A stretch of 64,000 bases of DNA from assembly GCA_958296135.2 (NCBI GenBank), contig CATQHZ020000001.1, positions 1 through 64,000 on the forward strand, written 5' to 3'. The notes under the pieces were generated by a model that saw only the letters and a list, made by a program, of their open reading frames with translations, was not told the DNA's origin and made no database searches. Of the stretch, positions 38,292 through 60,743 are shown piece by piece. Position numbers and translations under genes: made by a program. The DNA is from an uncultured Poribacteria bacterium (lineage in GTDB: Bacteria; Poribacteria; WGA-4E; WGA-3G). How positions within the stretch are numbered: the first letter of the stretch is position 1; every line of letters starts with the position of its first letter.

Positions 38292-38446
38292 TGGGACTTC
38301 CTCCCTTTGAACATTTCAGGATGGACGCAGCACTTCCGCCGTAGGCGCAATTCAAAACCGCGCCTACCAGCACGTGTCAATTTTTGCGTCGCTCCTGCAG
38401 TCTTTACCTTAATTATACACCATTCTCTAAAAAAAGTTGCAAAAAA

Positions 38447-41400
38447 ATGTCAGAACCGATTTACAACAACCGTTCCCTCTTTTCGAGTTATTATCTTGAG
38501 AAGGTAGTGACGGAACAAACCGATGCATCGCTCACGGATGTCTATGAACAGATTCAGCGACTCTACGCGCCCATCGCTGCGGATGCGTCTCGGCTGAACG
38601 AGGCACAGACAGAGGAGCTGTTCATTCGTCCCGTGCTCCGAATCCTCGGACACGCCTTTGTAGTGCAACCGATGCTTCGCACGGCGCAAGGCACGAAGCA
38701 ACCCGATTACGCCTTCTTCGCTGGCACCGAAGCGGTGGAGAAGGCGCGCCCATCGCTCAATACCGACGATTTTTTCAACACTGCTACCGCTATCGGTGAC
38801 GCGAAGGCATGGGGCCGAAATCTCGACCGGCGGTTGGACGGACCCGGCGACGCATTCTCGAATAGCAACCCAAACTATCAGATCGATTTCTACATCCGAA
38901 CAGCCGGACTGACGTGGGGGGTGCTCACCAACGGAAAGCAGTGGCGGCTCTATCATCGCAATACCAGCTACAAATTGGATAGTTTCTACGAAGTAGACCT
39001 GGGAGAGGTGCTAACTGATGACGACGTAAACGCTTTTCGCTATTTTTACTACTTTTTCCGCAAAGAGGCGTTCGCTCAAGAGGTTGCCGCTCGTCCCGTA
39101 GGGCGAAGGGCTGTCCCTCGCCATGATGTCTCAACCTTTTTAGATAACGTATTAACTGGCAGCGCACGCTACACCGTCGCCGTTTCGGATGACCTCGGGG
39201 ACAGAATCTATTCGGCGTTAGAGGCACTGATTAACGGATTTCTCGCCTATCCCGATAACCAGCTAATGAATAGCTGCCCCCCCCCACTTCACTTGCATTA
39301 ATACAATTAAACACCGAGTTGGACACTCTCCACGAAAATTGCCTCATCCTGCTCTATCGGCTCCTATTTATTCTGTATGCCGAAAGCCGCGGGCTGCTGC
39401 CGCTTGAGGATGCAGATTACCACGCAGCCTATAGTTTGGATGCGCTTGCCACCGAGGTCCACTCCGAACTTGATGCCCAGACAGAAATGCCTGCGCTGCG
39501 GAGTGACTACTGGGCGCGCCTCCAAGATTTGTTCCGGCTCATTGACAAAGGATGGGAGGAACGTATTCCGCAATATAACGGCGGGCTGTTTAATCCGGCG
39601 CGCCACCCGTTTTTAGAAGCCGCTAAAATCGGGAACGACGTGCTTGCCGAAGTCATTAATCTGCTCACGCGCACGAAGGCGAAGGAACGCATCGCCTACC
39701 AAGACCTGGCGATTCAGCACCTCGGCAATATTTACGAGGGATTGCTGGAATATAACGTCAGCGTGCAGGATGCACGGTTAGAAACCGCGCCTACGGAGGT
39801 GCGGTTAGTTCGCGACAAAAAAGAACGTAAGGCGAGCGGCAGTTACTATACCTCCGATGCAATCGTTCGCGCGATGGTTGAAGACGCGCTCGAACCGCTC
39901 TGCAACCGCAAGTCTTATGAGGAGATTCTCCGGCTCAAAGTGTTGGATCCGGCGATGGGCAGCGGGCACTTCCTCGTCGGCGCGATTGATTATCTCGCAC
40001 TCCAGTTGGCGACACACCCCGACGCGCCGCCTGTCCCTGCGCGCTTGGAAGGCGCGCCTACTGATAAGTTTGCAGACGACACGGACACCGAAATCGCCTA
40101 TTGGCGGCGGCGCATCGTAGAAACCTGTATCTACGGCGTAGATCTGAACCCGATGGCGGTGGAGTTGGCGAAAGTGTCGCTTTGGCTTCACACCGTGGCG
40201 AAAGACGAGCCGCTCTCCTTCTTGGCTCACCATATTCGTTGCGGGAATTCGTTGATTGGGGCGGATATCGCCGAGCTCGCCAATCTGCCAGTCTTGTCCA
40301 AACGTCGTCGCGCCGCCGAAACCCCGCAAACCGCGCTCACCATGGATTTCGGATGGACGGATACCGTCTCCGAAGCAGTGGGGCATTACCTCGTCATTGA
40401 GACGATGGAGAGCCAGACCGCGGACGATATCCATGCGATGGAGCAAGAGTTGCAGCTCGCGCAGCAGCGGCTCAGCCATCATAAGGCAATCGCGGATTTC
40501 TGGATGAGCGTCCATTTTGGCAATGCCGTTACGCCCGGCGATTACCGCGCGCTCACCACGGAAGAGACAGACGCACCTCTCCACGCGCTTGTCTATCAAG
40601 AAGCACGGGCATTGGCGGAACGCTACCGCTTTTTCCACTGGGAGATTGAGTTTCCTGAAGTCTTCCGCGATGCATCGGGACATGCATTGGCGAACCCCGG
40701 CTTCGATGCCATCATCGCCAATCCACCTTACGGCGCGAAGCTTGACTCGCACGAGAAGGCTTATCTCAAACGGGTTGCAAAAGAGACGCAGAATTTGAAC
40801 AGCGCGGCACTTTTCATTGACGCTGCTAAAAACCGCTTGCTGAAATCGGACGGTGTGCTTGCCTTCATCGTGCCGAAGTCGCTGTTGTATGTCGAAAGTT
40901 GGCGGAGTTTAGCGTTCGCGTTGCTCGACAAAACGCGGGTTTTGGTTGACGTTGAGGCGGCGTTCAAAAACGTCAAATTGGAGCAAGTGTTTTTCATCTA
41001 TGACATGCATCACGCTGCGGATTTTTACACGGCGCGCAAATTTGTCGATGAGACATGGATCCGCACCGTCGAAATTCCCACGTCCTATGTCAACGCCTTT
41101 CAAGCGTGGATTTGCGATGTATCGCCGGAAGAAATTCGTCTGGGGGAACGGATAAATCGCATTGGGACGTTTATGCGGGCTATTTCTCAGACGACTCGCG
41201 GTTTGTCTGTAGAGAGACTGCTGAAGCCTTCGGGTGATATTGCGTTAATCGGCGGCAAAAACATAAACCGCTACGGAGTTGAAGGCGTGAAAGGCTTTCT
41301 AAATAACGAAGCCCTTGACCGGACGAATAAGAAAGTGCAATCGCTACTTCAACCCAAAATTATCTCTCAGAAAATCGTAACGACGAGGAAGATTAACGCT

Positions 41401-41772
41401 ACTGTTGACAAAGCGGGGGATATATTGGGCGTGAATACCGTCGAAAATACCTTTATCACAGATGCAAACTTTCATCCGAATTTTATTGTCGCCTGTTTCA
41501 ACGCCACATTGGTGAATTGGTATGTCCACCGGTTTATCTATTGTTCGGCGAGGATGACGATGTTTTTTGACAACTACTATGTCGGCAAAATCCCGATTCC
41601 GGTTGTAAGTCTCGCGGAACAGCAGCCTATCGTTGAATTGGTAGAACGGGTTCTGGCGGCGAAACGGGAGGACCCGGATGCGGACACGTCTGCGCTGGAG
41701 CGGGAAATTGACGCGTTGGTTTACGCGCTTTACGGCGTGACGGACGAGGAGATTGCGGTTGTGGAGGGATGA
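38447..41772 (+). pseudogene. Type IIG (Eco57I-like) restriction-modification enzyme, frameshifted at C9 (39277-39285)
   Basis: 5' ORF has a PD..DAK nuclease motif and LTNGKQWRLY. 3' ORF has LLYRLLFILYAE, GSYYT, DPAMGSGHF, NPPY and a TaqI-like C-terminus. One extra C fuses the two frames with no stop. Confidence 0.85.
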
Positions 41773-41813: not shown

Positions 41814-42164
41814 TTAGGGGCCGTTATTTCGATGGGGTACCAGCATCCGTGTGACTTCATCGAGAGTTGCTGCTTGTGCGGCGGTGCGCAACAGCTGGTT
41901 GAGATGTTGCACATCGGTGATGCCCTCAAACAAGGGCTTTAGAAATTGCACATCCCTGTCTTGGAAGCGCGCGTCCAAGACATTCATGAGGGCATCGATA
42001 GCAGTGCCTCGCGCGCCTTGTTCCCTGCCGCGCGTCATGCCGAGTTCAATGCCTTCTTCTCGGCCTTCTTCCCGGCCGATTTCTTTTCCCTGTTGTAGTG
42101 CCTCGTGACGTGCTTCTTCCAGGGGCTGCTGCATGAGGCGTTGGAAAATGGATGTATGTCTCAC
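41814..42164 (-). CDS. Stand-alone copy of the Rpn C-terminal module (RpnS-like)
   Basis: Near-identical to 42243-42617; has its own GGAGG-5nt-GTG start. Confidence 0.7.
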   Translation of the reverse strand: MRHTSIFQRLMQQPLEEARHEALQQGKEIGREEGREEGIELGMTRGREQGARGTAIDALMNVLDARFQDRDVQFLKPLFEGITDVQHLNQLLRTAAQAATLDEVTRMLVPHRNNGP

Positions 42165-42242: not shown

Positions 42243-43304
42243 TTAGGGGCCGTTGTTTCGATGGGGTACCAGCATCCGTGTGACTTCATCGAGGGTTGCT
42301 GCTTGTGCGGCGGTGCGCAACAGTTGGTTGAGATGTTGCACATCGGTGATGCCCTCAAACAAGGGCTTTAGGACTTGCACATCCCTGTCTTGGAAGCGCG
42401 CGTCCAAGACATTCATGAGGGCATCGATAGCAGTGCCTCGCGCGCCCTGTTCCCTGCCGCGCGTCATGCCGAGTTCAATGCCTTCTTCCCGGCCTTCTTC
42501 TCGACCTTTTTCCCGGCCTTCTTCCCGACCGATTTCTTTTCCCTGTTGTAGTGCCTCGTGACGTGCTTCTTCCAAGGGCTGCTGCATGAGGCGTTGGAAA
42601 ATGGATGAATTTCTCATATCTTCCTCCGAAATAATTGAGTAGATTGTCTCCGGGGCGTAGGCAAGATTGCCGAAAATCCCCGTTGACATCAGTAAATTGT
42701 CGATACTCGCCGTATCTAGCGGCAGTTGCCGCGTCGTCGCGACGCACTGCCGCAGCCACGTGACACTGCTGACTCCCGCCGGCGGTTGCATCAACGGCAC
42801 AAACGGCATTAAACCGGGCAGTTGCGTCTCCAGAATCGGACCGCCGTCGAGTTCATAAAGCCGAATCACTTCATATTCCGAGATGAACCGTTGTCCAGGA
42901 ACGTGCACATTTTGATAATAACTGCCCGGATCCCGGCGTCCGGCAGGGCGTTGAAAGTAGATAACATACGAGCGGATGGGGAGTTCGGTGTCTTCGTAGC
43001 ATCTCCCACGGTAGCCAGCAATCCGGCGTTCTATCGGGATTGGGTAACTATCATACATCTGATATTCGCGATGGATGAGCGTTGGTTCGCCGACTAGCGA
43101 GATTTTCGTCAGGCTATCCATGCGGCGCACATCCATAGCCGGGAGTTCTATATCAAGATGCTCGATGAATTCAAAATCGGATGTGCCGAGTAGCAGGCGC
43201 AACATATCGTTTGGGAATGCACGCGCCGAATGCTTCGCAGCAACATCGTATCGGTTTGCTGGCAAATTGTCCCAGTCAAAAGGGTTCTGAATGTCATTTT
43301 CCAT
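42243..43304 (-). CDS. Rpn-family PD-(D/E)XK nuclease/putative transposase with an internal start at 42617
   Basis: YD...K, RRMD, IHREYQ, Y.VIRL; GREEG repeats in the C-terminus; GGAGG-AAGAT-ATG inside the gene. Confidence 0.8.
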   Translation of the reverse strand: MENDIQNPFDWDNLPANRYDVAAKHSARAFPNDMLRLLLGTSDFEFIEHLDIELPAMDVRRMDSLTKISLVGEPTLIHREYQMYDSYPIPIERRIAGYRGRCYEDTELPIRSYVIYFQRPAGRRDPGSYYQNVHVPGQRFISEYEVIRLYELDGGPILETQLPGLMPFVPLMQPPAGVSSVTWLRQCVATTRQLPLDTASIDNLLMSTGIFGNLAYAPETIYSIISEEDMRNSSIFQRLMQQPLEEARHEALQQGKEIGREEGREKGREEGREEGIELGMTRGREQGARGTAIDALMNVLDARFQDRDVQVLKPLFEGITDVQHLNQLLRTAAQAATLDEVTRMLVPHRNNGP

Positions 43305-43403
43305 ACACGTTAGTATACAATAGATGCGAGGTTGCAATCAAGTTTTTTGCGAATTGTTTGCGTTGAAGCATGACACGGGAACCGTGCGCGCGTCCATGTC
43401 TAC

Positions 43404-47691: not shown

Positions 47692-47919
47692 GAAGTCTAC
47701 CTCGGTCTTGTCTTCCCGTAAGGCGAGGGCCTGTCCCTCGTCTTACCGTGTTCTGCCGTTATTGGAAAACGAAATCGTTTTGGAAATAGCACGGCATTGT
47801 GGTATTTTCGCGCCGTATATGTTATACTTAAGTCTCGCGTGCAAGGTGCTCAAGATTGGGACCCCAACAGGTTTTAGCCAATATAAATGGCTTGCACGTG
47901 CCGTTAAAGGAATATCCAA

Positions 47920-48426
47920 ATGGCAAGAGATAAAGACATAGTCGAGAAGAGAGTGCCTGTCTTCAGTTTCAGGCAGGGAATGTTTCTTGCAGACCTTATT
48001 TTCTTTCTCGTGCTGATAGCGGGCTATACTCACATGGTAGGAAGATATGAGTTCGCCAAAGGCAGGGAAAGTTCTGTTGAAACGATAATCGCCATCGTAG
48101 GACATGTTGGAGAGTTTATTTCGGTGGCTTTCGTTTTAACCTTGTTTTTTGAAATCGGAGGGTCTCTTATCATGATACTGTGGAACCTCTACAAGAGGGA
48201 ACAAGAGAAACGACTCAGGGAAGTGACGGCCGAAGTGACGGCCGAAGTGACTAAGAGAGTGACTAAGAGAGTGACGGCGGAAGTTGCTGCGGAAGTGACG
48301 GCGGCAGTCACCACGGAGAGAGATCGGGCGTGGACAGAGTGGAACACCCGGCGGATGGCGGCAGAGGCAAGCGGTACCCCTTTTCATGAACCGCCGCCGA
48401 CTTCGCCACAAGTTGCCCCGGAATAG
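47920..48426 (+). CDS. Two-TM protein with a 4-aa-repeat C-terminal module; paralog of 55833-56369
   Basis: AAAGGA RBS; two hydrophobic helices; EVTA/RVTK repeats; W..W..RR.AA...G.PF.EP.P tail. Confidence 0.75.
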   Translation: MARDKDIVEKRVPVFSFRQGMFLADLIFFLVLIAGYTHMVGRYEFAKGRESSVETIIAIVGHVGEFISVAFVLTLFFEIGGSLIMILWNLYKREQEKRLREVTAEVTAEVTKRVTKRVTAEVAAEVTAAVTTERDRAWTEWNTRRMAAEASGTPFHEPPPTSPQVAPE

Positions 48427-48650
48427 CGAACGGTTTCCCGCCCCGCTTCTGTGCGGGGGATCGGATGAATCTCTGTGGAGCGGGAGTTCTTCTCGCTCCA
48501 TAACACAATGCGGAACAACTATTCCGCCCAGATTTTAGGGGCTAAAAATAGCATCGAAAACGTAGTCATCGACAACGTCAATGACAAGTTACGCAAAGGA
48601 ACGTTATTGCTCCAACCCACCTATCCGAACGCTTTACGCCAAAATAAAAA

Positions 48651-50069
48651 ATGAGACAGAAAACTGAAAACAAGCCCCCCAATATCCTGCGGGAGATTCA
48701 ATCAAACAAGGTGAAGCCGGTGTATCTGCTCTGTGGCGAGGAGAGTTTCCTCATTGAGGGAACGCTCAAGCAGATGCTGGATACCCTACTGACACCCGAC
48801 ACGCGCGATTTTAACCTCTCCTTTTTAGAGGGAACCGCTGTCACAACGCGCGAAATCCTGAGCCAGGTCGGTCTCTATCCCGTCATCTCCAAGTGGCGGG
48901 TTGTCGTGGTGCGCGACCCGCAGTTTTTCAAGACGCAGAAGCGTGCGACGCCGATAACGCTCATCCGCAATGCTGTCAAATTGGAGAATGCGGATGCCCA
49001 AAAATGTATCGTGACGATGGCGAAACTGTTGGAAGTTACACCGCAACAGCTCGCCGAACGCCACGCAGATTTCACAAACGCTGTCGACGCAGTTATTGAT
49101 GAAGTGGGCGATAAATTAACCGCGGACGAGCGCGCGTTCCTGGAGCGGCTACCGCAAATCGCCGAAACGGTAGACGTTTCTTCTGCGGATACCAGGGATG
49201 CTGACGATGCAGAATTGCTGTTTGAATGGCTCCAAGGCGAACTCCCCAAAACGAGCGTGCTGATAGTGACGGTGCAGGGTGCTGTCAACGAACGGAACCG
49301 CCTCGTGAAGCAAATCCAAGAGGTGGGCCGCTATGTCTCCTTCCAACCGTTTTCTGGGGCCGCTTCAGGGGGGAACGTCACTCGCGACCCGCTCTATAAA
49401 AAAGTCTCGGAGAAGTTCGCCGAATTTGATAAGCAGATAACGCCCCGCGCCTACAACCAACTCCGCACTCGCACCGGCGGCGACATGCACACCATCGCCG
49501 AAGCCATCAACAAGATTGTGAATTTTGTCGGCGATAAACACCAGATTGACGAGCAAGATGTACGGAATATGGTAACGCAAAATACCTTTGACAGCATTTT
49601 CGACCTTACCGATGCAATCGGTAGGCGTTCTGTCGCGCAAGCACTGAAAAGCCTTCACGAAGTGTTAGCCAGCGGCGAACCACACATTAAGGTGCATACG
49701 CTGATTATCCGCCAACTCCGCCTGGCACTGCAGGCGAAACTCGTCTCGGCAAAAGGAAACCGCAAGCAAATAGGGCGCAGAATGCAGTTTGATACGTTTG
49801 TAAACGACATTTTTAAACCGCTCTCCCACGAAATGGCGGATTTACTCCCAACAGCCGCGGATACGAACGTCCTGAAGCAACGGCCCTATGCCGCCTACAA
49901 AATTTTTCAGACGCTCCATGCTTTCACCGTTGAGGAACTTATGGCTGCTCTTCAAAAGGCGTTGGAAGTGGACACCCAATTGAAAACCAGCCAATTAGAC
50001 GCTACCTGCATTTTGGAGCAATTGGTGTGTGAGTTGTGTGAAAGCCCGAGGGGCCGCAGGCATCCTTAA
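48651..50069 (+). CDS. holA: DNA polymerase III subunit delta, with a long internal insertion
   Basis: PVYLLCGEESFL, DFN, IFDLTDAIG, D.QLK....D...LE.LV. Confidence 0.88.
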   Translation: MRQKTENKPPNILREIQSNKVKPVYLLCGEESFLIEGTLKQMLDTLLTPDTRDFNLSFLEGTAVTTREILSQVGLYPVISKWRVVVVRDPQFFKTQKRATPITLIRNAVKLENADAQKCIVTMAKLLEVTPQQLAERHADFTNAVDAVIDEVGDKLTADERAFLERLPQIAETVDVSSADTRDADDAELLFEWLQGELPKTSVLIVTVQGAVNERNRLVKQIQEVGRYVSFQPFSGAASGGNVTRDPLYKKVSEKFAEFDKQITPRAYNQLRTRTGGDMHTIAEAINKIVNFVGDKHQIDEQDVRNMVTQNTFDSIFDLTDAIGRRSVAQALKSLHEVLASGEPHIKVHTLIIRQLRLALQAKLVSAKGNRKQIGRRMQFDTFVNDIFKPLSHEMADLLPTAADTNVLKQRPYAAYKIFQTLHAFTVEELMAALQKALEVDTQLKTSQLDATCILEQLVCELCESPRGRRHP

Positions 50070-50178
50070 CCGAGCCTATTTTTTACTATCCTTTTCGCGT
50101 CGAGAAGACTCTATCTCATAGCAAAGAAAATAACCCGGTTGAGTCTACGTAGTTCTGATAGAAAAAGGAGGATTTGGC

Positions 50179-50412
50179 ATGTCACAAATCATTCTCATTA
50201 TTGCCATTATTTTTGGTAGCGTTACCGTGACGACGCTCGGATGCGTGTGGATGGGGACATCCTACTACGCAAAGAAACGCGGATTAACAAAAGGCGCATC
50301 GCAACACGAGATAGAGGCACTTCAGAAGAAGGTGAACCACGTGCAACAAGAAGTGGTAACCCTCCGGAAAGAGGTGAAACGCCTCATCAAAATCGCCAAG
50401 GGCGGCGGGTAA
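50179..50412 (+). CDS. Small single-TM coiled-coil protein
   Basis: AAGGAGG RBS; TM helix followed by a heptad pattern. Confidence 0.7.
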   Translation: MSQIILIIAIIFGSVTVTTLGCVWMGTSYYAKKRGLTKGASQHEIEALQKKVNHVQQEVVTLRKEVKRLIKIAKGGG

Positions 50413-50426
50413 GGGAGGGATATCGC

Positions 50427-50768
50427 ATGGGATTGCTGCTACTTCTCATTTTTCTTGGGCTGATGCTCTTTTTTATCGTTGAGTTTGTGGCCGTGATTAC
50501 CGCCGTTGTGGCTATCGTTGCCGGTGGGACAATGCTCATCGTGTTGGTGAGCGTCTGGCTGTGCACCTCGTATTTCCTCAGGAAATCGGGTTACGAGCCG
50601 GGCGGCGCGCGAAACGCCTATCGCCAAGTTGAATCCGATTTGGACGGGGTGATTGCGGATTTGCAGGAAGTCCGCTTTGAATTGGACGAGGTTGCGCCGC
50701 TCTTGCAGGACCTGGAATTTATCAGATATGCCCGCCAGGACCGCAGAACCGGCAAAAAATCTTCGTAA
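50427..50768 (+). CDS. Small membrane protein with a coiled-coil tail
   Basis: GGGAGG RBS; long hydrophobic N-terminus; VWLCTSYF resembles VWMGTSYY in the upstream gene. Confidence 0.7.
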   Translation: MGLLLLLIFLGLMLFFIVEFVAVITAVVAIVAGGTMLIVLVSVWLCTSYFLRKSGYEPGGARNAYRQVESDLDGVIADLQEVRFELDEVAPLLQDLEFIRYARQDRRTGKKSS

Positions 50769-50903
50769 TCGTCCGGATGAAGGACAGCTGTTCCTCACCG
50801 TTCCAAGGGTGTTCCGCAGTCCCGTAGGGCGAGGGAAAACCCGGCGAGCGCGAATCGCCGAGGGTTTCCCTCGCCAGGCATCGAGCGTGACAGGAAACGT
50901 CTG

Positions 50904-50930
50904 AACGCCTTGGGCTTCGGGCGTTTTTTG
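50904..50930 (+). terminator. Intrinsic terminator
   Basis: aacgcc...ggcgtt stem followed by a T run. Confidence 0.5.
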
Positions 50931-50983
50931 TTGGTTGAGAAATCGCGGGGAACAGGCCCCCGCGCTACGAACTTGTAGATGCG

Positions 50984-52312
50984 TTAACCCCGCAATTCCT
51001 GCTGAATCCGCGCAACAACCTCCGCTCTCGCCACAGTCTGCTGCTCCCGAGTAGCAAGATTCCGAATCGCAACCGTCCCCGCCGATACCTCATCTGAACC
51101 AAGGATGGCGACGTAAGGAATGCCCCGGTTGTCCGCGTATTTTATCTGCGCGCTGATACGGGCAGGCCGGAAATAAACCTCGGTGCGCACACCGTTTTGG
51201 CGCAAAAGTGTCGCTAACTTCAGAGACGCCGGCATCAACTCGTCGTCGAAAACGGATACCAATACGTCTGTCACCGTCTTGCCGATGGAAGGCGGGAACA
51301 TGTCAAACGCCTCCATCACGTCAATAATCCGTTCGATGCCGAAGCTGGTGCCGGTAGCAGGGTAACTCTGCTTGCTGAAACTCCCGATCAGTTCGTCGTA
51401 TCTGCCGCCGCCGGTGATGCTCCCGATTTTCGGTTCTTTGACGACTGTTTCATAAATCGGTCCGGTGTAGTATTCCAACCCGCGCACCATCGCCACGTTG
51501 ACCCGGTAGCATTCTTCGGGAATACCGAGCATCGTGAGGTAGCCGATGAGCCGCTGCAATTCCGCGATGCCTTCTCGCGCCGCCGCCGAATCGCCGAGTT
51601 GCTCACCGAACGCGCTCAGCACCGTCTCTGCATCGCCTTCGATCTGGAGCAGCGGGAGCAGCTTCGCGATGACAGGTTCCGGAATTTCGTTTTGGCCCAA
51701 CTCCGCCCGAACCCCGTCCAACCCGATCTTGTCCAATTTATCGATAGAACGGTAGAGTCCACCGAGTTGCTCGGCTGGCACCCCGGCGAATTGCCCGATG
51801 CCGGTGATGAGCTGCCGGTCGTTGATATTAATCTCGAATTGCTTGAAACCGAGGCGTGACAGCACCTGATAGATGAGACTCACATTTTCTGCGTCCGCCA
51901 GCATGCTCTCGCTGCCGACGGTATCGGCATCGCACTGATAGAATTGGCGGTAGCGTCCCTTCTGTGGGCGTTCGGCGCGCCAGACCGGGGCGATCTGGTA
52001 TCGCTTGAACGGTTTCGGCAGCTGCGGATACATGGCGATGACGCGGCAGAGCGGCACGGAGAGATCATAGCGAAGGGAGATGTCCTCCTTCCCGCCGCTG
52101 TGTCCTGCCTGATAAATGAGTTTTTCGGCATCCGGGCCGTATTTGCCCATCAGCACTTCGGAGAGTTCCAGCGCGGGCGTTTGTAGCGGTTCAAACCCGA
52201 ATGCCTCAAAGACTTCTTGAACGGTATTAATGACGTAGTGTCGGCGGAGCATCTGTTCGGGTAAGATGTCTCGCATCCCGCGCGGCACGCGCGGTTTGAT
52301 AAAGGTTGCCAT
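50984..52312 (-). CDS. hisS: Histidyl-tRNA synthetase
   Basis: PRGMRD, LRYDLSVP, VWRAERPQKGRYRQFYQCDAD, RGLEYYTG, GGGRYD, SFGIERI; AAGGAGG RBS. Confidence 0.96.
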   Translation of the reverse strand: MATFIKPRVPRGMRDILPEQMLRRHYVINTVQEVFEAFGFEPLQTPALELSEVLMGKYGPDAEKLIYQAGHSGGKEDISLRYDLSVPLCRVIAMYPQLPKPFKRYQIAPVWRAERPQKGRYRQFYQCDADTVGSESMLADAENVSLIYQVLSRLGFKQFEININDRQLITGIGQFAGVPAEQLGGLYRSIDKLDKIGLDGVRAELGQNEIPEPVIAKLLPLLQIEGDAETVLSAFGEQLGDSAAAREGIAELQRLIGYLTMLGIPEECYRVNVAMVRGLEYYTGPIYETVVKEPKIGSITGGGRYDELIGSFSKQSYPATGTSFGIERIIDVMEAFDMFPPSIGKTVTDVLVSVFDDELMPASLKLATLLRQNGVRTEVYFRPARISAQIKYADNRGIPYVAILGSDEVSAGTVAIRNLATREQQTVARAEVVARIQQELRG

Positions 52313-52428
52313 GGGTTCCTCCTTTGTGGTATATGAACCGTCTTGGTCCGTAGCGCGGGGACCTGTCCCCCTCGCTCGCCGGGCCCTACGGGACTGCAGG
52401 ACGGTTGTTGTTAACCGCCTACCGGCTG

Positions 52429-53232
52429 CTAGATGTGCCCGGGCAATGCCTGGCTCCGCCGCCGGCGCAGCCCCTTCTCCAACGTCTGCTTGAATTCCGC
52501 AATCTTCGCCCCTTTCCACGAGTCTTTCAGCGATTTCGGGTTCGCAATCAGGGTAGATTCGGATTCTCGCAGCAGCTCGATTACCTTGAGTTCGTTCGCC
52601 ATGAGCGTCCGCCGGGACGAGGTGGAATTGTCGATGATGGCATCCGCTTCTTCGGGCGGCTTCCCTTCGGTTGCGCCGAAAGAGAGCATCAGCGTGATGG
52701 GCGACTGATAACTGCCGCGCGTATTGAGCCGCTTCCACGGTGTCAGGATAGCGGGGGCAATTTGGTTATCTGTCTTCTCAAGGATGTATTTCTCGGCGAG
52801 GTTGAGATACTCGGTGGAGATGCGGATGCTGTTAGAAAACGCGCTGGCGAGGGGCGCGCAAGAATCGGCGAGCTGCATCAGCTCTTCAAACGTGTTGATG
52901 TCATCGCGTTCTTGGCGCACTGCCAGCACAATGTCAATGCGCCCGTATTCTAGCGGCAAGATTTCTTCAACTGCCGCGTCTGCCTCCTCTGTCCAATCTT
53001 GTCCGGTGATGCCGATGTCATAGAAATCGTCCATCCCGACGTAGACAGGAATCTCTTGTGGGCGCGATATCTTGATTTGCAGTTCGCTGTCGTTGCGAAA
53101 GGCGGCGCGATACAACCGGTCTGTCTCCGTATACCCGTTGACATCGTAGCCGGCGCGTTGGAGCATTTCAAGCGTTTCGCCCTGCAGGCTGCCTTTGGGC
53201 AAAAGTAGGTTCAGTTTTTTTTCTGTTTGCAT
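52429..53232 (-). CDS. hisG: ATP phosphoribosyltransferase
   Basis: LPKGSL, RPQEIP.YV, DIGITG.DW, STEY, SFGATE, ADAIID. Confidence 0.92.
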   Translation of the reverse strand: MQTEKKLNLLLPKGSLQGETLEMLQRAGYDVNGYTETDRLYRAAFRNDSELQIKISRPQEIPVYVGMDDFYDIGITGQDWTEEADAAVEEILPLEYGRIDIVLAVRQERDDINTFEELMQLADSCAPLASAFSNSIRISTEYLNLAEKYILEKTDNQIAPAILTPWKRLNTRGSYQSPITLMLSFGATEGKPPEEADAIIDNSTSSRRTLMANELKVIELLRESESTLIANPKSLKDSWKGAKIAEFKQTLEKGLRRRRSQALPGHI

Positions 53233-53474
53233 CAGAGGGCTTCCTCGTAGTCAGTTCGTTTGAGTCTGTAGGCCGGTCTTCCTGGGCCTGATGTTCCGTG
53301 AATCGTCGAGCCCGGGAGGCTGCGCCTCCCGGAAGTTATATGACATTAACTTGATTCGCATCGTCTCTGTAGGTGGAGATGCACCAAATCTGGATCCGTT
53401 CGGGATTAGGCGAGCCCGAAGGACAGCGGAAAACTGGATATGACAGACGCAGGAAAAATCAACTTCATTTGGTA

Positions 53475-54902
53475 TTAAAGATCGGCGATAGCGACAACCT
53501 CTGCCTTGTCTGTCTTCAGTTCGATTCGGCGAATGGGTTGAGCTGGGGCTAAGCGGAGCACGTATTCATAGTTCGCTTGCACAGCATAATCGTGCTGCGC
53601 TTGAGCATCGCGCGCCATCAGATCTACCTCCACAATCTTGCCGGCGCGCCGCAGTTTTTCAGCGAGACGTTGCGCCTCCGCCGTGAGTTCCGGCGAAGTT
53701 GTCGCGATGAAGTAATCGCGTTTCGCGGAAACCGTGGCGTTCTCCGTTTGGGCAAACGCCGCCATCAGCGAGTCAAATTGAAACGCAAACCCCGCACCGG
53801 GAACCGAAGGCCCGCCGAACGATTCAATGAGGCTGTCGTATCTGCCGCCGCCACAGAGCGGCAACTGCGGTTCCGCCAATTCAATTTGGAAGACATTGCC
53901 GGTGTAGAAATCAAACCCGCGCGTGAGCCCGAGGTCTATCTCAAAATCGGTGATGTCGTGATTGTGAAGTGCATCGCAGAGGGCAATCAATCCCTGTTTC
54001 TCCGTGTCTGCGATGCCCTGGAGATATGTGTCCCACGCCGCGAGGACTGTCTCCTTATCGCCACGAATTTTCGATACGTTGATGCAGTTCTGCCCGACAT
54101 TGGTTGGGAGCAGAAAATCGTGAAACCATTTATACCGGTAAGTGGCACCCGCTGTTTGCGTCAAATTTTGGACCCAGATACGGGTGAGTGACTGTGTAAA
54201 GAGGTCTGGATGTTCCGGCTCCACTTTAAGAATGCCATCATAATCCGGCCCCTGCATCCGCCCTAACGCCTTGTGATGTTCGCGGAGGACTTCCGCACGG
54301 TGCGGCGGACGCTGGATGTCGGCTACAAGTTCGGCGAGTGTCTCCAAATCTAAGATGATTTCCCCGAGGTCCCGCGGATGGAGGCCGACCGGTTTTAAAA
54401 TCTGCCGGAAGATGCCGGGCGCGCCGATTTTCAGTTTCGTATTATGAATGTTCAATTTTTCCAAGATTCGGACAGGAAGTGTGATGATTTCCGCGTCCGC
54501 GAGGGCTGATGCCGGCCCGATGAGCTCCACGCCTGCCTGCCGGAACTCCCGATGTGCCGATGCTGACGCTTGCCGAACGCACTGCCCGATATAGTAGAGT
54601 TTATACGGATAAGGCTGGCATTGCAGTTCGCCGTTCGCGATAAGCCGGCACACGGGTGCAGTCAGTTCCGGGCGCAAGGCGTAATCGACTCTGTCTGAAC
54701 CGACGAACGTAAACATTTTTTGACGGATTTCCTCGCCGGATTGCGCCGATAACAGCGCGAAGGATTCAAACAGCGGTGTCTGCACCTGCGCGTATCCGTA
54801 TGCCTCAAACGTTTCACGAACGACATTTTCAACGAAATTTCGTTGAACCATCTGGTCTGGCAAAAAATCGTTTGTGCCGGCCGGTTTGGTAAATTTTGCC
54901 AT
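53475..54902 (-). CDS. hisZ: ATP phosphoribosyltransferase regulatory subunit (HisS paralog)
   Basis: PAGTND, LRPELTAP, REFRQAGVELIG, GGGRYD; degenerate motif-2 loop; directly upstream of hisG. Confidence 0.75.
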   Translation of the reverse strand: MAKFTKPAGTNDFLPDQMVQRNFVENVVRETFEAYGYAQVQTPLFESFALLSAQSGEEIRQKMFTFVGSDRVDYALRPELTAPVCRLIANGELQCQPYPYKLYYIGQCVRQASASAHREFRQAGVELIGPASALADAEIITLPVRILEKLNIHNTKLKIGAPGIFRQILKPVGLHPRDLGEIILDLETLAELVADIQRPPHRAEVLREHHKALGRMQGPDYDGILKVEPEHPDLFTQSLTRIWVQNLTQTAGATYRYKWFHDFLLPTNVGQNCINVSKIRGDKETVLAAWDTYLQGIADTEKQGLIALCDALHNHDITDFEIDLGLTRGFDFYTGNVFQIELAEPQLPLCGGGRYDSLIESFGGPSVPGAGFAFQFDSLMAAFAQTENATVSAKRDYFIATTSPELTAEAQRLAEKLRRAGKIVEVDLMARDAQAQHDYAVQANYEYVLRLAPAQPIRRIELKTDKAEVVAIADL

Positions 54903-55036
54903 TTTTTGTATGGCCTCCTTAATAGGACTGACGCATATCCTATCTCCCCGTAGGCGCGCTTTCAAAGCGCGCCTACGGGGGTGTTCTGCGTCTGTGTCTT
55001 GCTTACGGGTATCTCCCTACCAGCGGTGTGCCACTT

Positions 55037-55123
55037 AAAAAAATCCCCGGCAAACGGTGCACCTTATCTCTGGCGCGCAGCTATCGCGCTGCACAGAGGA
55101 GAGCGGTTAGTTTGCCGGGGTTT
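55037..55123 (-). terminator. Attenuator terminator of the his operon (long loop)
   Basis: CCCCGGCAAAC pairs with GTTTGCCGGGG, followed by a U run; 54-nt loop. Confidence 0.6.
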
Positions 55124-55184
55124 GCACAAGCTAGGCTTGCGTCGTGTCCACGAAGGTGTTATGCATCATCCTAATCCGCTCTGC

Positions 55185-55232
55185 TCAGGCATGGACCGGA
55201 TGATGATGAGGGGTGAAAAATAGCGTTTGCAT
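55185..55232 (-). CDS. hisL: His leader peptide MQTLFFTPHHHPVHA
   Basis: 15-codon ORF with four CAT codons, between the promoter and the terminator upstream of hisZ. Confidence 0.8.
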   Translation of the reverse strand: MQTLFFTPHHHPVHA

Positions 55233-55267
55233 GATTTTTTTTTTTGCTTCAATAAGCAATTTATTAT

Positions 55268-55296
55268 ATTATACCCTATTTCAGAGCAAATGTCAA
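55268..55296 (-). promoter_or_regulatory. Sigma70-type promoter of the his operon
   Basis: TTGACA-17-TATAAT on the minus strand. Confidence 0.8.
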
Positions 55297-55301
55297 ATTT
55301 T

Positions 55302-55331
55302 TTGACATTTTTCGGGTGAGTGTGGTATACT
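55302..55331 (+). promoter_or_regulatory. Divergent sigma70-type promoter
   Basis: TTGACA-18-TATACT with a TG extension. Confidence 0.6.
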
Positions 55332-55546
55332 ATATGCATCTATAGGGTAAGTGCTCCTGAAAATTCAGAATGAGACCTGGTTATTTTCCAACCTGCCTCC
55401 AGCAGCTAAGAGGGGCCCCTTCTTCCGTAGGGCGATGGTCCGGCGATAGCGAATCGCCGAGGGTTTCCCTCGACTTGCCATGCTCGCGGGGACAGTGGAC
55501 ATCTCTGCAGCGAGGCGGCAGAGAGGACAAAGTTAAAGTAAGGTAG

Positions 55547-55681
55547 CGTGCTTTCGCGAGGCGACACACGCACGTTTGCTGTAGGCGTGACCGTGCTTTC
55601 GCGAGGCGACACACGCGCATTTTCTATAGGCGTGACCGTGCTTTCGCGAGGCGACACACGCACTTTTGCTGTAGGCGTGAC
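55547..55681 (+). repeat. Three tandem 45-bp units containing (G/A)TAG
   Basis: Units start at 55547, 55592 and 55637: cgtgctttcgcgaggcgacacacgc-N-taggcgtgac. Confidence 0.9.
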
Positions 55682-55832
55682 CGTAACGGCTCCCGCGCTA
55701 CGTTTCGGAGAGCGGCATCGTCCTGTCGTCTGCTAAAAAACTTGACATTCTGCGCGAGATGCGCGAGACTATTCTTACATCGCCTGGTGCTGCTTCTGTC
55801 TGGGCGGTGAACTGGAAGGAACTGCAACCTGC

Positions 55833-56369
55833 ATGAAAAAACAACAATCTAACGATACGGCACAGGACAGGGTTCCGTTTCTCGGTGTGAAACGTCGCTG
55901 GGTAGGCTATGCGTTGTTCATCTTCGTCCTCAGTCTGCTTGTCTATGCGGGTTTCTCGACTGCAGAGCAGCTCAGTACCGCTGGTTGGCGTGGTTTCCCA
56001 ACCGTCCGCGCCATCCTACATGATACGTCGCAGTCTCTACCGATGTTGGGTGTTGCGCCTATCGTTATTCTGGTGATATGGGAGTTTCTGATGATTCTGT
56101 ATGAAATTGTGAAAGAGCAGATAGAGGCGCGTCAGCGTTCTCGCATTGCCGCCCATGAGGCGCGCGGCGAGGAGCGGGGTATCAAACTCGGCGAGGAGCG
56201 AGGTATCAAACTCGGCGAGGAGCGTGGTCTTGAACGCGGTCGGGAATTGGAGCGCGATGCTTGGGTTGACTGGTTTGAACGCCGGCAAGCGGCGGCGGCG
56301 GCGGGCGAACCGTTTACCGAGCCGAATCCCGCCGAAAAACAGAACGGCACCTCGCCTCCTGCGCCCTAG
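55833..56369 (+). CDS. Two-TM protein with a GEERGIKL-repeat C-terminal module
   Basis: Two hydrophobic helices; tail motif shared with 47920-48426. Confidence 0.75.
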   Translation: MKKQQSNDTAQDRVPFLGVKRRWVGYALFIFVLSLLVYAGFSTAEQLSTAGWRGFPTVRAILHDTSQSLPMLGVAPIVILVIWEFLMILYEIVKEQIEARQRSRIAAHEARGEERGIKLGEERGIKLGEERGLERGRELERDAWVDWFERRQAAAAAGEPFTEPNPAEKQNGTSPPAP

Positions 56370-56773
56370 CACCAATTCGCCAGGGCTTAGCGGTATTTAG
56401 TTTTCCGCACGATACGTCGCAGTCTCTACCGATGTTGGGTGTTGCGCCTATCGTTATTCTGGTGATATGGGAGTTTCTGATGATTCTGTATGAAATTGTG
56501 AAAGAGCAGATAGAGGCGCGTCAGCGTTCTCGCATTGCCGCCCATGAGGCGCGCGGCGAGGAGCGAGGTATCAAACTCGGCGAGGAGCGTGGTCTTGAAC
56601 GCGGTCGGGAATTGGAGCGCGATGCTTGGGTTGACTGGTTTGAACGCCGGCAAGCGGCGGCGGCGGCAGGTGAACCGTTCACCGAGCCGAATCCCGCCGA
56701 AAAACAGAACGGCACCTCGCCTCCTGCGCCCTAGCACCAATTCGCTAGGGCTTAGCGGTATTTAGTTTTCCGC
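56019..56773 (+). repeat. Tandem duplication of the 3' part of the 55833 gene
   Basis: Unit 1 is 56019-56407 and unit 2 is 56408-56772; unit 2 lacks one 24-nt repeat. Confidence 0.92.
56480..56734 (+). CDS. Stand-alone copy of the C-terminal module (alternative start 56432)
   Basis: GGGAG followed by TTTCTG-ATG; intact frame; substitutions are synonymous. Confidence 0.55.
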   Translation: MILYEIVKEQIEARQRSRIAAHEARGEERGIKLGEERGLERGRELERDAWVDWFERRQAAAAAGEPFTEPNPAEKQNGTSPPAP

Positions 56774-57744: not shown

Positions 57745-57947
57745 AAGGTAAACTTCTATTTGATAAGAAATCGACGTTTGAGAAGTCCGCTGTCGCGCGC
57801 GTAACGGCAACACGCCGGTGGTGAAACGCTCTTGGCTTACGTTATGCCGAAGCCGTGGAGTGCGTCTCTCACACGTGAAATTCGCTCGCGTTGTCCGCAA
57901 GGGCGCGCGAACGCCAAAATGGCAATTACATGAGTAAGGAGTATCTA

Positions 57948-60743
57948 ATGAAAAATCAGCTTTTGACTGGGAAAATCTTGTTTTCCTTATTAGCTGTTGT
58001 GATGTGTTTGGGTTTCACAGCGATGAGTCACGGCCAAGCCGTCGTCTCTGTAGAGCCTGCTGAAGTAGCCTCCCCGGCCGCCGGGGAAGAACTGATGGTG
58101 AGTATTAACATCGCGGGTGCTGCAGATGTCGCCGGTTATCAGATGACGGTGAATTTCGATGCAACGGCCCTCGCAGTCGGTGAGGGTAAAGCGGCTATCG
58201 GAGATTACCTTCCCGCTGGAGCATTTCCTATCGTCACGCCTGGCGAGGGTAGCGTCACAATCGCGGCGACTTCTCTGACAGGCGCGGCCGCGGCTGCCGA
58301 TGGCACACTCGCTACAGTGACGTTTACGGTTGTTGAGGCAAAGGCCTCCGCGATTACATTGACGGATGTCACGCTCTCGAATGCTGCCGCAGACTCGTTG
58401 GCAGTCACATCCATGGATGGCGCGGTGACCGCCGCTGCAGCTGAAGCACCCGCTGAAGGCGAAGAGCCTGCCGAGGGTGAAGAACCCGCTGAGGGCGAGG
58501 AACCTGCTGAGGGCGAGGAACCTGCTGAGGGTGAGGAACCTGCTGAGGGTGAGGAACCTGCTGAGGGCGAGGAACCCGCTGAGGGTGAGGAACCCGCCGA
58601 AGGCGAGGAACCCGCTGAGGGTGAGGAACCTGCTGAAGGCGAGGAACCTGCTGAGGGTGAGGAACCCGCTGAAGGCGAGGAACCTGCTGAGGGTGAAGAA
58701 CCTGCTGAGGGCGAGGAACCTGCTGAGGGTGAGGAACCTGCCGAAGCTGAGATGCCCACCAGCCAAATGTTTGAAGTTACCCTGACGAACCTCACCACGG
58801 GTGAAGCTGGAGCAGGGGGACAAATTCTTTCACCGCCCATATTTGTTGCGCACGCCGCTGGCATTAATCTCGCCCCAGTGGGCGAAGCTGCTAGTGAGGC
58901 AATCGTCGCCCTCGCTGAAGGTGGCGATGTGTCAGGGCTCGCTGCTCTGGCAACAGCCGCGGGGGCATCCTTTGTCGTTGCAGATGGCGCTGTCCCGCCC
59001 GGTGGGAGTGCCACCGCTACGGTAACGGCTGACACAGCCAACTCCTCGCTCTCTGTTGGAGCGATGTTGGTGTCCACGAATGATGGATTCATCGCGCTTA
59101 CCGATTTTGCGCTCTTCGATGCAGATGGCGCGCCCGTAACGATGAGTCTTGACCTCAGTGCTTACGATGCTGGCAGTGAAGAAAATACGGAGATGGGATC
59201 AGACATCCCCGGCCCGATCGGTTTAGATGCCGCGGCAGACCCCGAGGGTAGCAACGCGCGTGTCCCAACTGAAGGCGGCGTTATCGCTGCACACCCAGGC
59301 ATCCAAGGCGGGGCCGAGGTCGGCGAAGCATTCGCATGGACAGAACCCACAGCAATGCTGACGATTACGCCTGTTTCGGCTCCAACGCCGGTGGAACCGA
59401 CAGAACCGACGGAACCGGTGGAACCAACGGAACCAACGGAACCAACGGAACCGGTTGTCGTAGAGCCCACGATGCCTGCAGAATCCGGCTTTGATGTCGC
59501 ACTTGAACCGGGATTGAACATGATTTCTATCCCGTTGATGCCGGAAGAACCTTACACCGCGAAATCGCTCGCGGACATGTTAGGTTCAACGATTGTCATC
59601 AAACTTGATGCTACCACGCAGAGCTTTGTCGGCTACACCGTCGCCGAAGGCGATGACGGGTTTGCCATTGACGGCGGACGCGGTTATATCGTCAATACGC
59701 CGGCTGGTGGTGTCGTGACGTTCACCGGAAGTGCCTGGTCCAACCCGACAACGGAAGAACCGGCTGTGGTGGAACCACCGGCAGATGATGATCCTGTTGT
59801 TGTTGTGGAACCACCGGCAGATGATGATGCCGCTGTTGTGGTGGAACCACCGGCAGATGATCCTGCTGTTGTGGTGGAACCCCCGGCAGATGATGATCCT
59901 GTTGTTGTTGTGGAACCACCGGCTGCCGATGATCCTGTTGTTGTGGTGGAACCACCGGCAGATGATGATCCTGCTGTTGTGGTGGAACCACCGGCAGATG
60001 ATGATGCCGCTGTTGCGGTGGAACCTGCTGCCGAGGAACCTGCTGCTGACGATGCCGCTGTTGCGGCGGAACCTGCTGCCGAGGAACCTGCTGCTGAAGA
60101 GGCTGCACCCGCTGCACCCGCACTCTCCACCTATAAGAGCGCGTGGGCGTTCATCGTCACAAGCGACTTACAGGGCATGGAAGCCGGCGCATCCTACACC
60201 GTCATCGCAGAGAACCTGCGCACCGGTGCTGTCACGAGTCAGCGCGTCAGCAGTGACGTGAAACGCTCCGCTGCTGTTTGGGCAGACATGAATCGTAAGA
60301 GCGTCGTGGAAGCCGGCGACAAAGTCGAAATCACGCTCCATGATGAGCGCGGTGCCGTCGTTTCCGGGCCCTTCCAGCGCACTGTGACAACTACGGATAT
60401 TCGGAATGCGTTCCTGACGCTGCAACTGCGCGTCGGTGATGTGCAACCGAAGGATACCATCCTTGCACAGAACTTCCCGAATCCGTTCAACCCAGAAACT
60501 TGGATCCCCTATCAGTTGAACCAAGCAACTGAAGTCACGATCCACATTTACGACGCAGCCGGCCGTTTAGTCCGGACGCTCAACCTGGGTTGGCAGCCGA
60601 CTGGCTCTTATATGACTGCCTCTAGCGCAGCCTATTGGGATGGCCGAAACGAAGTCGGTGAACGTGTCGCGAGCGGTATCTATTTCTATACCCTCCAGAC
60701 ACAGGATTTCACTGCTACGCGCAAGATGGTCATCCTGAAGTAG
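57948..60743 (+). CDS. Secreted cohesin + spondin_N protein with acidic repeats and a T9SS type-A/FlgD-like C-terminal domain
   Basis: Signal peptide; VAGYQ..V.FD...GTLATVTF cohesin pattern; LSPP..VAH, ALAEGG, MLVSTNDGF, YDAGSE.N.E spondin_N motifs; QNFPNPFNPETWIPYQL...RKMVILK. Confidence 0.88.
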   Translation: MKNQLLTGKILFSLLAVVMCLGFTAMSHGQAVVSVEPAEVASPAAGEELMVSINIAGAADVAGYQMTVNFDATALAVGEGKAAIGDYLPAGAFPIVTPGEGSVTIAATSLTGAAAAADGTLATVTFTVVEAKASAITLTDVTLSNAAADSLAVTSMDGAVTAAAAEAPAEGEEPAEGEEPAEGEEPAEGEEPAEGEEPAEGEEPAEGEEPAEGEEPAEGEEPAEGEEPAEGEEPAEGEEPAEGEEPAEGEEPAEGEEPAEGEEPAEAEMPTSQMFEVTLTNLTTGEAGAGGQILSPPIFVAHAAGINLAPVGEAASEAIVALAEGGDVSGLAALATAAGASFVVADGAVPPGGSATATVTADTANSSLSVGAMLVSTNDGFIALTDFALFDADGAPVTMSLDLSAYDAGSEENTEMGSDIPGPIGLDAAADPEGSNARVPTEGGVIAAHPGIQGGAEVGEAFAWTEPTAMLTITPVSAPTPVEPTEPTEPVEPTEPTEPTEPVVVEPTMPAESGFDVALEPGLNMISIPLMPEEPYTAKSLADMLGSTIVIKLDATTQSFVGYTVAEGDDGFAIDGGRGYIVNTPAGGVVTFTGSAWSNPTTEEPAVVEPPADDDPVVVVEPPADDDAAVVVEPPADDPAVVVEPPADDDPVVVVEPPAADDPVVVVEPPADDDPAVVVEPPADDDAAVAVEPAAEEPAADDAAVAAEPAAEEPAAEEAAPAAPALSTYKSAWAFIVTSDLQGMEAGASYTVIAENLRTGAVTSQRVSSDVKRSAAVWADMNRKSVVEAGDKVEITLHDERGAVVSGPFQRTVTTTDIRNAFLTLQLRVGDVQPKDTILAQNFPNPFNPETWIPYQLNQATEVTIHIYDAAGRLVRTLNLGWQPTGSYMTASSAAYWDGRNEVGERVASGIYFYTLQTQDFTATRKMVILK
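58452..58739 (+). repeat. 16 x 18-bp coding repeat (AEGEEP)
   Basis: 288 bp with synonymous variation between units. Confidence 0.95.
59755..60110 (+). repeat. Coding repeats VVVEPPADDD and EPAAEEPAA
   Basis: Visible at both DNA and protein level. Confidence 0.9.

Follow-up and report, generated by a model that had tools for sequence, protein, structure and literature searches.

The 64,000-nucleotide stretch of an uncultured Poribacteria genome analyzed here, hereafter the window, contains two genes, designated L gene 1 and L gene 2, which belong to one unannotated family of proteins of ~170 amino acids (aa), and each appears to carry a second, shorter gene nested in frame at its 3' end. The long product, L, is predicted to be a small membrane protein, and the short product, S, would correspond to its C-terminus. 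The explanation that best accounts for the data as a whole, to which we assign a probability of roughly 55%, is that L and S form a nested pair in which S restrains L, by analogy with the nuclease pair RpnL/RpnS. At the level of sequence, the family itself, an internal start conserved at the nucleotide level, free-standing copies of S that are under constraint, and a module held in common with Rpn nucleases are all established. The original prediction, made from the letters of the window, had described these loci as Rpn logic on a different effector. The architectural half of that proposal is upheld by a start conserved at the nucleotide level across two phyla, by free 3' modules beginning at the same ATG, by repeat numbers that vary among close relatives, and by the presence of the same tail on PF04754 Rpn nucleases.

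The two window proteins exhibit the same organization (Table 1). Hydropathy analysis indicates two hydrophobic 19-residue stretches apiece, and an in-frame Shine-Dalgarno-like (SD) sequence with an ATG, at 48172 in gene 1 and 56091 in gene 2, lies directly after the second predicted helix. The internal methionine is Met85 (MILW) in gene 1 and Met87 (MILY) in gene 2. It is followed by a helix of variable short repeats, built of EVTA/KRVT 4-aa units in gene 1 and GEERGIKL 8-aa units in gene 2, and then by the tail W..W..RR..A...G.PF.EP.P, common to both proteins. These features had been read correctly from the two sequences, with the qualification that the SD of gene 2 is just moderate (-6.8 kcal/mol, against -10.0 kcal/mol in gene 1). 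The accompanying claim that the two N-terminal halves are dissimilar holds only in part: each does contain two helices, but ten full-length paralogues align end to end, and the halves are therefore divergent homologues and not unrelated sequences.

Table 1. Positions in the window of the two L genes, their internal start signals and repeats, the duplicated module, and the Rpn-like locus.
Feature	Position	Strand	Description
L gene 1	47920..48426	+	168 aa; open reading frame (ORF), hydropathy, family hidden Markov model (HMM) E 1e-65, alignment with nine paralogues
Gene 1 internal SD-like GGAGGG	48157..48162	+	9 nucleotides (nt) 5' of ATG 48172; -10.0 kcal/mol
Nested S ORF 1	48172..48426	+	84 aa, MILWNLYK..., in the frame of L gene 1; ATG at the family-wide conserved column
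Gene 1 repeat array	48219..48308	+	12-nt (4-aa) period, 7.5 copies; Tandem Repeats Finder
L gene 2	55833..56369	+	178-aa paralogue; ORF, family HMM E 9e-69, AlphaFold2 model
Gene 2 internal SD-like GGGAG	56080..56084	+	6 nt 5' of ATG 56091; -6.8 kcal/mol
Nested S ORF 2	56091..56369	+	92 aa, MILYEIVK...; ATG at the conserved column
Gene 2 repeat array	56165..56228	+	24-nt (8-aa) period, 2.7 copies; Tandem Repeats Finder
Second copy of the 3' unit 56022-56408	56411..56773	+	Alignment; one 24-nt unit shorter
Free-standing S ORF of the second copy	56480..56734	+	84 aa; own GGGAG at 56469-56473
Rpn-like gene	42243-43337	-	364-aa ORF; internal GGAGG and ATG 'GGAGGaagatATG', GREE/GREK 4-aa repeats
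Downstream S copy of the Rpn-like gene	41814-42164	-	GTG start after its own GGAGG; one unit shorter

The internal start was assessed in homologues from 150 fetched loci, whose complete stop-to-stop frames were scored with an HMM of the ten paralogues, yielding 170 unique frames; family matches in the phylum number 887. An in-frame ATG occupies the same aligned column, just past helix 2, in 131 of the 132 frames that span both ends of the profile, and the single exception has lost that segment. SD duplex energies, computed against the 3' end of the genome's own 16S rRNA (...CACCUCCUUUCU), are -7.5 kcal/mol or lower for 80.9% of these 131 ATGs, compared with 5.0% of 3262 background ATGs, the latter being internal in-frame ATGs of long ORFs in the genome of the window. 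The conservation of SD and ATG among homologues, which the original prediction had left to be checked, is supported by these counts. Synonymous resampling of the seven upstream codons gave a mean energy of -6.6 kcal/mol against an observed mean of -9.4 kcal/mol, and in every one of the 28 sequence-context groups the observed energy fell below the mean of the null.

Codon choice provides the clearest signal of the internal start. The residues preceding the methionine differ among subfamilies (GG, QGV, VEV, KEA, EEA, WE), while the nucleotides remain constant. Among 100 frames with a glycine within codons -7 to -3, 95 have GGA as the first glycine codon, 5 have GGG, and 0 have GGC or GGT, whereas elsewhere in the same ORFs GGA and GGG together account for 32% of glycine codons and GGC and GGT for 69%. 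The next glycine codon in that stretch is GGT or GGC in 46 of 58 cases. Among the Dehalococcoidia, an SD (-9.2 to -10.9) and an ATG, in one instance a GTG, occur at the same boundary in 7 of 8 loci. Overall, the gene-within-gene architecture is well supported.

Free-standing copies of the 3' module are frequent, a quantity that had also been marked for checking: 34 of the 170 family frames begin at profile position 50 or later and adjoin full genes. On reading of their sequences, 33 of these 34 orphan modules keep the conserved methionine. The junctions of the underlying duplications vary, lying just 5' of the SD or exactly at the ATG. At two loci in genomes of the window's genus (L075, L080), the orphan ATG overlaps the stop codon of the upstream full gene as ATGA, and in three further orphans the ATG lies 7-13 nt past the upstream stop. 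Gene callers in public data have predicted proteins of 65-90 aa that start at the conserved methionine. The orphans are 86-100% identical to the neighboring full gene, with one pair at 79%. Their pooled orphan-versus-parent ratio of nonsynonymous to synonymous change (pN/pS) is 0.33 over 24 pairs, a value that includes constrained change on the parent lineage and does not prove constraint for every orphan; one identical pair, one pair of unclear parent and one split gene were left out.

Variation in repeat number accompanies these duplications. Orphan and parent lengths disagree in 22 of the 26 pairs compared, and for 15 of these the difference is a multiple of 12 nt; in the genome of the window, 4 of 5 orphans differ from their parent by exactly one 12- or 24-nt unit. 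The 4- or 8-aa repeats of the L family start ~17-24 residues past the methionine, and in the MILYEIVK orthogroup, which comprises the gene 2 orthologues (28 clusters), the methionine lies 41 to 81 aa from the tail, with spacings that change by 4 or 8. Family genes and modules are arrayed at one further locus (L081, G030:C1:5482521-5487084), where one copy is interrupted by a TGA four codons 5' of the internal ATG and reads as two pieces, a membrane part of 79 aa and an S ORF of its own.

The duplication at gene 2 offers the closest view of such an event. The second copy, one unit shorter and with its own SD as had been proposed, differs from the first at four bases: 56303 (G/A), 56306 (C/T), 56315 (T/C) and 56381 (C/T). 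The first three are synonymous (synonymous differences 3, nonsynonymous 0), and the change at 56381 is non-coding, lying 3' of the stop. The longest ORF of the second copy begins at ATG 56432, inside helix 2, and its family-conserved start is ATG 56480. A hairpin follows each copy, and the non-coding difference was thought to weaken the upstream one; this terminator role was dropped, as both hairpin versions fold to -7.3 kcal/mol, no better than shuffled sequences.

The possibility that the copy at 56411-56773 is an assembly artefact, such as two strain alleles joined head to tail, had been raised at the outset, and the two copies do differ by a few single-nucleotide polymorphisms and one repeat unit, as alleles would. 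The duplication was checked in short-read contigs from four runs of one sample, possibly the source sample. A 90-nt contig, 56351-56440, bridges the duplication junction at single-copy (flank) depth in each of the four runs, and a shared 155-nt piece of the duplication is present at ~2x flank depth; the reads themselves thus contain the tandem duplication, and it did not come from the joining of two alleles during assembly. The polymorphic stretch of the second copy, 56602-56683, is uncovered by the contigs, a gap that is uninformative given that contigs drop minor paths. Similar duplications with other junctions occur at 4 further places in the genome of the window and in many other genomes, leaving the artefact explanation scarcely credible.

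Genes 1 and 2 are members of one family whose layout comprises two membrane helices, a helix of variable 4- or 8-aa repeats, and the tail W..W..RR..A...G.PF.EPPP. The genome of the window (5.19 Mb, 4 contigs) harbors 10 full-length paralogues, 5 free-standing 3' modules adjoining four of them, 3 stand-alone double-tail ORFs, and 1 divergent tail-less copy. The family amounts to 1425 clusters at 50% identity (E<=0.001), and 134 of the phylum's 176 genomes carry it, all from three families of a single order, with up to ~24 matches per genome; a distant branch occurs in metagenome-assembled genomes of Dehalococcoidia. One homologue carries the source label 'hypothetical protein [Candidatus Poribacteria bacterium]'. 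Purifying selection acts on both halves of L (pN/pS 0.23 in the N half, 0.22 in the C half; 39 disjoint pairs), and the tail is the most conserved part of the proteins. An AlphaFold2 model of the gene 2 protein, built from 123 sequences (mean predicted local distance difference test score, pLDDT, 76.8), comprises a helix at residues 21-49, a short loop, one continuous helix at 55-157, and a Pro-rich tail. In this model, helix 55-157 exits the membrane and bears the repeats and the W..W..RR motif.

Searches of existing resources did not assign the family. None of the models in Pfam, NCBIfam, PADLOC and PHROG describes it; PF04754, PF12784 and PF14261 gave no match in the two window proteins or in 123 family members, and 0 of the 10 paralogues matched PADLOC-DB 2.0 at E<=0.01. 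The family profile retrieved only Vpu among PDB sequences, at E 0.49. For the N half, the best ESM Atlas scores (0.86 and 0.84) belong to unnamed clusters, mostly from Chloroflexota, and serve as a lead only. Two apparent relationships were rejected. NCBIfam FliH models matched 4 of 10 paralogues (best E 2.2e-7, far below cut-offs) through the repeats only, and the Pfam Yae1_N model matched 27 of 123 members within the low-complexity repeat. The likeness to the glycine-repeat helices (AxxxG/GxxxG) of FliH and Yae1_N is limited to the repeat segment of L, and no other part matched, so no family relationship is indicated.

The genome also contains small proteins with more than one tail. Three stand-alone ORFs of 112-125 aa at G000 C1:4797670-4801281 (L016, L017) are arranged helix-tail-helix-tail, as two fused S-like modules; each has its own SD, and two sit in an 865-bp tandem repeat. 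Multi-tail small proteins are likewise present in public data (e.g., P0158, P0177, P0180, P0187).

Judged by sequence, a clade of Rpn nucleases from the same phylum terminates in the tail module of L. A 369-aa PF04754 protein, P0267 (79 bits against a cut-off of 21), was found among longer proteins, and it and five further PF04754 clusters (P0267-P0272) end in KAEG repeats and YRAWYADWERRRQAAAEKGIPFDDPPPP. Profile alignment of the P0267 tail with the L family using hhalign gave a probability of 99.1 and E 1.5e-18. In a 92% identical orthologue of P0267, from a genome of the same taxonomic family, 'GGAGGtagataatatcATG' precedes MKSAAETLIEQG, and P0273 carries the same tail on a different N domain. 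Other Rpn genes inspected in the phylum possess the same kind of internal start and repeats with an ordinary helical C-terminus, and no PF04754 or PF12784 match was found in the genome of the window. The same S module with a matching internal start on an Rpn clade therefore looks like a portable cassette.

The window itself contains an Rpn-like locus (Table 1). It resembles the L genes in having an SD and ATG inside the gene, 4-aa repeats, and a shorter tandem S copy, and it differs in its soluble N domain and in a C-terminus formed by a helical domain without the W..W tail. The N domain, of ~240 aa, is 33% identical to that of P0273, and no Pfam or NCBIfam model recognizes it. Adjoining this locus on the forward strand, ORFs 38384-39298 and 39319-41772 are hit by models of type IIG restriction-methyltransferases and DrmMI (E 1e-18 and 5.7e-96) and may represent one enzyme split in two.

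Comparison with characterized systems clarifies where the L family stands. The RpnL/RpnS pairs, described for E. coli RpnA-E and RpnP2, are gene-within-gene toxin-antitoxin systems with internal starts and 4-aa repeats beginning 8-20 residues past the methionine, in which L-S pairing is lost when repeat numbers differ and in which toxicity, L-S binding and phage defence are all demonstrated (Zhong et al. 2023, PMC10400941). A commentary names the evolutionary driver of repeat fine-tuning as an open question (PMC10400984). The L family resembles these pairs in its putative internal start for a small protein identical to the C-terminus, in a 4-aa-repeat helix combining one hydrophobic residue with charged residues or glycine in numbers that vary among close relatives, and in a tail that is the very same as that of one Rpn clade in the phylum. 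It differs in that the N-terminal part of L is a two-membrane-helix hairpin and not a PD-(D/E)XK nuclease, and in that S is predicted as one long helix with a Pro-rich tail and not as a DUF4351-type (PF14261) three-helix bundle. The L/S pair is known here from sequence and prediction, in contrast to the demonstrated activities of Rpn. The family thus fails two defining Rpn features, the nuclease domain and the DUF4351 fold, and is not an Rpn by its sequence, although by every sequence-level test made it appears to work like one.

Two further precedents are drawn from the same paper. Second S copies, ypaA/rpnE-Ss and rpnC-Ss, lie downstream of rpnE and rpnC (PMC10400941). Like the free modules of the L family, these are small genes located directly downstream of the long gene from which they derive; the L-family modules differ in being far more frequent, in forming arrays of up to two or three, in sometimes overlapping the stop as ATGA, and in their frequent inequality of length with the parent. 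In type I-D Cas10d/Cas11d, also a gene within a gene, the two products cooperate (cited in PMC10400941). There, a small protein started inside a long gene assembles with the long product, as may be the case for L and S; Cas10d/Cas11d represents an unrelated, non-membrane family and lacks repeats and free copies. The literature searched, which was partial, yielded the Rpn paper, the commentary and one review, and no description of the L family; the Rpn supplements may list RpnS variants with this tail.

In the proposed mechanism, L would be an inner-membrane protein with a short basic N-terminus and two helices, the second of which continues as a long cytoplasmic helix. A ribosome-binding site and ATG at the cytoplasmic end of helix 2 would start a soluble S of 60-100 aa, equivalent to the C-terminus of L and consisting of a long helix, with a fast-varying number of 4- or 8-aa repeats, followed by the tail. 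Extra S genes arise repeatedly by tandem duplication of the 3' module, the start being kept and the repeat number usually changed. By analogy with RpnL/RpnS, S would pair helix to helix with the identical segment of L and thereby hold its membrane activity in check. That activity would depend on self-association, probably with the hairpins oligomerizing into a leaky assembly, and repeat number and sequence would insulate the ~ten paralogous pairs of a cell from one another.

The steps of this mechanism differ in strength. Binding of S to L is the somewhat favored outcome, and complex prediction gives it weak support: at least 91% of contacts are common to the runs, with a partner pLDDT of at least 79. 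The pairing of L with S (residues 87-178) scored 0.47, against 0.00 for the best of 3 controls, a score lying where passes are more often wrong than right, as 58 of 80 solved complexes passed the mark, as did 2 of 110 mismatched pairs, and those passing at 0.60 or below comprised just 7 of the 80 solved complexes and both mismatches. That L is toxic or defensive, with S as its antidote, stands somewhat short of even odds and draws on analogy and on the variability of the family.

Several observations, the range of that complex score among them, weigh against the proposed mechanism. S is probably made, a judgment that comes from sequence signals, and these signals have limits. The SD is weak in the IQVWDIIMYLT group (-3.9 to -6.4) and in window gene 2 (-6.8); the residues at the boundary alone confer an SD-like tendency, with a resampled null of -6.6 against a genome background of -2.8; p-values of the resampling within single context groups are just 0.01-0.45; and just 69 of 131 frames have no SD-like site in the ORF stronger than the internal one. 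By its codon alone, the methionine cannot be distinguished from a conserved structural residue, and the pooled orphan ratio has the mixed origin stated above. The predicted single long helix of S is unlike RpnA-S, reported as a three-helix bundle (PMC10400941). Nothing marks L as a toxin, with no corresponding Pfam, PADLOC or PHROG family, and Foldseek found no structural match for the L model in the PDB (best E 2.6). Genomic context is similarly unsupportive. PADLOC matches at E<=1e-20 occurred in 5 of 7 family neighborhoods (positive: the window, L163, L167, L168, L170; negative: L166, L169); the corresponding count for 15-kb regions picked at random from this genome was 5 of 8, and for L164 and L165 the scan covered Pfam alone. 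Defence-island enrichment was accordingly discarded as a line of evidence, and the 'mad3' matches resemble generic ATPases. Many family copies lie among housekeeping genes, and at G000 C1:4806394-4807462 (L164) a full gene and two orphans lie between ftsA and ftsZ, in a cell-division/cell-wall cluster.

The main rival explanation, for which Cas10d/Cas11d is the model, holds that L and S are both made and co-assemble helix to helix into a membrane complex of fixed composition, with the tail recruiting a cytoplasmic partner and with no role in toxicity or defence. All architectural results fit this constructive subunit equally well, as do the location among housekeeping genes, including the set between ftsA and ftsZ, the lack of defence-island enrichment, and the existence of stand-alone double-tail and triple-tail small proteins; the tail being the most conserved part is what would be expected of a motif binding a conserved partner. 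Against it, variation of repeat number among close relatives and the presence of ~ten diverged paralogues in each genome typify conflict systems and not a housekeeping complex, and the family is patchy, being absent from 42 of the 176 genomes of the phylum. Among characterized systems, only Rpn toxin-antitoxin pairs bear such a module, and Rpn nucleases carry this very tail. This alternative is considered unlikely, but it is the strongest competitor.

Two other accounts fare worse. If no separate product were made, the SD-like site and methionine would be by-products of the boundary residues or of a translational pause, and the 3' modules would be debris in decay, left by unequal recombination that the repeats drive. 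The bias conferred by the residues themselves, the weak sites of some subgroups, and the tendency of tandem repeats toward slippage and unequal crossing-over are compatible with this account. It is nevertheless highly unlikely in view of the purine-ending first glycine codon in 100 of 100 frames, set against a freely varying next one, and of an SD stronger than the synonymous null in every context group. Retention of the ATG in the orphans counts against debris because random 3' fragments would often lack a start; furthermore, junctions fall at the SD or exactly at the ATG, including the two stop-start overlaps, the orphan frames stay open with pooled constraint, and the signal recurs in a second phylum. 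A still more remote proposal is that the genes are holin-like prophage lysis or membrane-permeabilizing genes whose internal start yields a regulator, comparable to the dual starts of holin and antiholin. Their small size, paired membrane helices and highly charged C-terminus fit this proposal, as do faint, sub-threshold Pfam matches to Vpu (E 0.026) and to Phage_holin_2 (E 0.86). The dual starts of holins, however, are N-terminal and a few residues apart, both products are membrane proteins, and a phage lysis cassette lies nearby, whereas the second start in L follows both membrane helices. No PHROG family is common to the paralogues, with 2 single-member matches (E>=5e-4) among the 10, and the ten copies per genome are scattered, with no phage genes adjoining the copies inspected.

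Additional features were recorded around the family genes. A REP-like palindrome with a 21-nt core, at ~47710-47750 of the window, occurs 523 times in contig C1 with at most 2 mismatches; copies lie just 5' of gene 1, between paralogue 1310495 and its orphan, and 5' of the double-tail ORFs. A 45-nt tandem repeat (3.1 copies, 91% matching) occupies 55547-55684 of the window, just 5' of the presumptive gene 2 promoter region. A clear defence cluster (L167, G000 C1:1303000-1318000) surrounds paralogue 1310495 and its orphan; it contains type III methyltransferase fragments (E 1e-160) and genes resembling HEC-03A/B (E 1.6e-110 and 7.8e-22), together with an ATPase immediately upstream. Downstream of gene 2, the window encodes at 57891-60743 (+) a 950-aa protein with ~17 EGEEPA units and Pro-rich VVEPPADD units, the C-terminus of which resembles a secretion-sorting domain. 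Contig C2 of G000 (143,886 bases) differs in G+C content from the main contig (36.8% against 54.4%) and could be extrachromosomal or derive from another organism.

The presence of the module on Rpn nucleases invites a broader and rather doubtful extension of the nested L/S reading, in which SD, start codon, repeat helix and short C-terminal domain would constitute a self-contained mobile regulatory cassette, with the free S copies as a switching reservoir. Such a cassette, start signal included, would move between unrelated effectors and across phyla, its carriers being the PF04754 Rpn nuclease, a second nuclease-like domain unknown to Pfam, and the two-membrane-helix hairpin. It would turn any oligomerizing effector into a self-inhibited toxin, and recombination with free S copies would switch the repeat number of the long gene and hence its pairing specificity. 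To our knowledge, the only characterized intragenic antitoxins are those of the Rpn nucleases. If the extension is true, intragenic antitoxins would possess a cassette-switching system, and the membrane effectors would form a new class.

Nested small proteins of this kind escape standard annotation. Abundant in two uncultured marine lineages, the L family would form a second effector class, of membrane type, that follows the same design and partly uses the same module as Rpn, which suggests that the self-regulating nested design may be more widespread than known. If L is toxic, the family would represent a new group of small membrane toxins with a built-in antidote. With hundreds of independent gene copies, dozens of independent 3' duplications, and repeat-number variation, the family provides a natural experiment on the specificity between long and short products, together with concrete constructs testable in E. 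coli.

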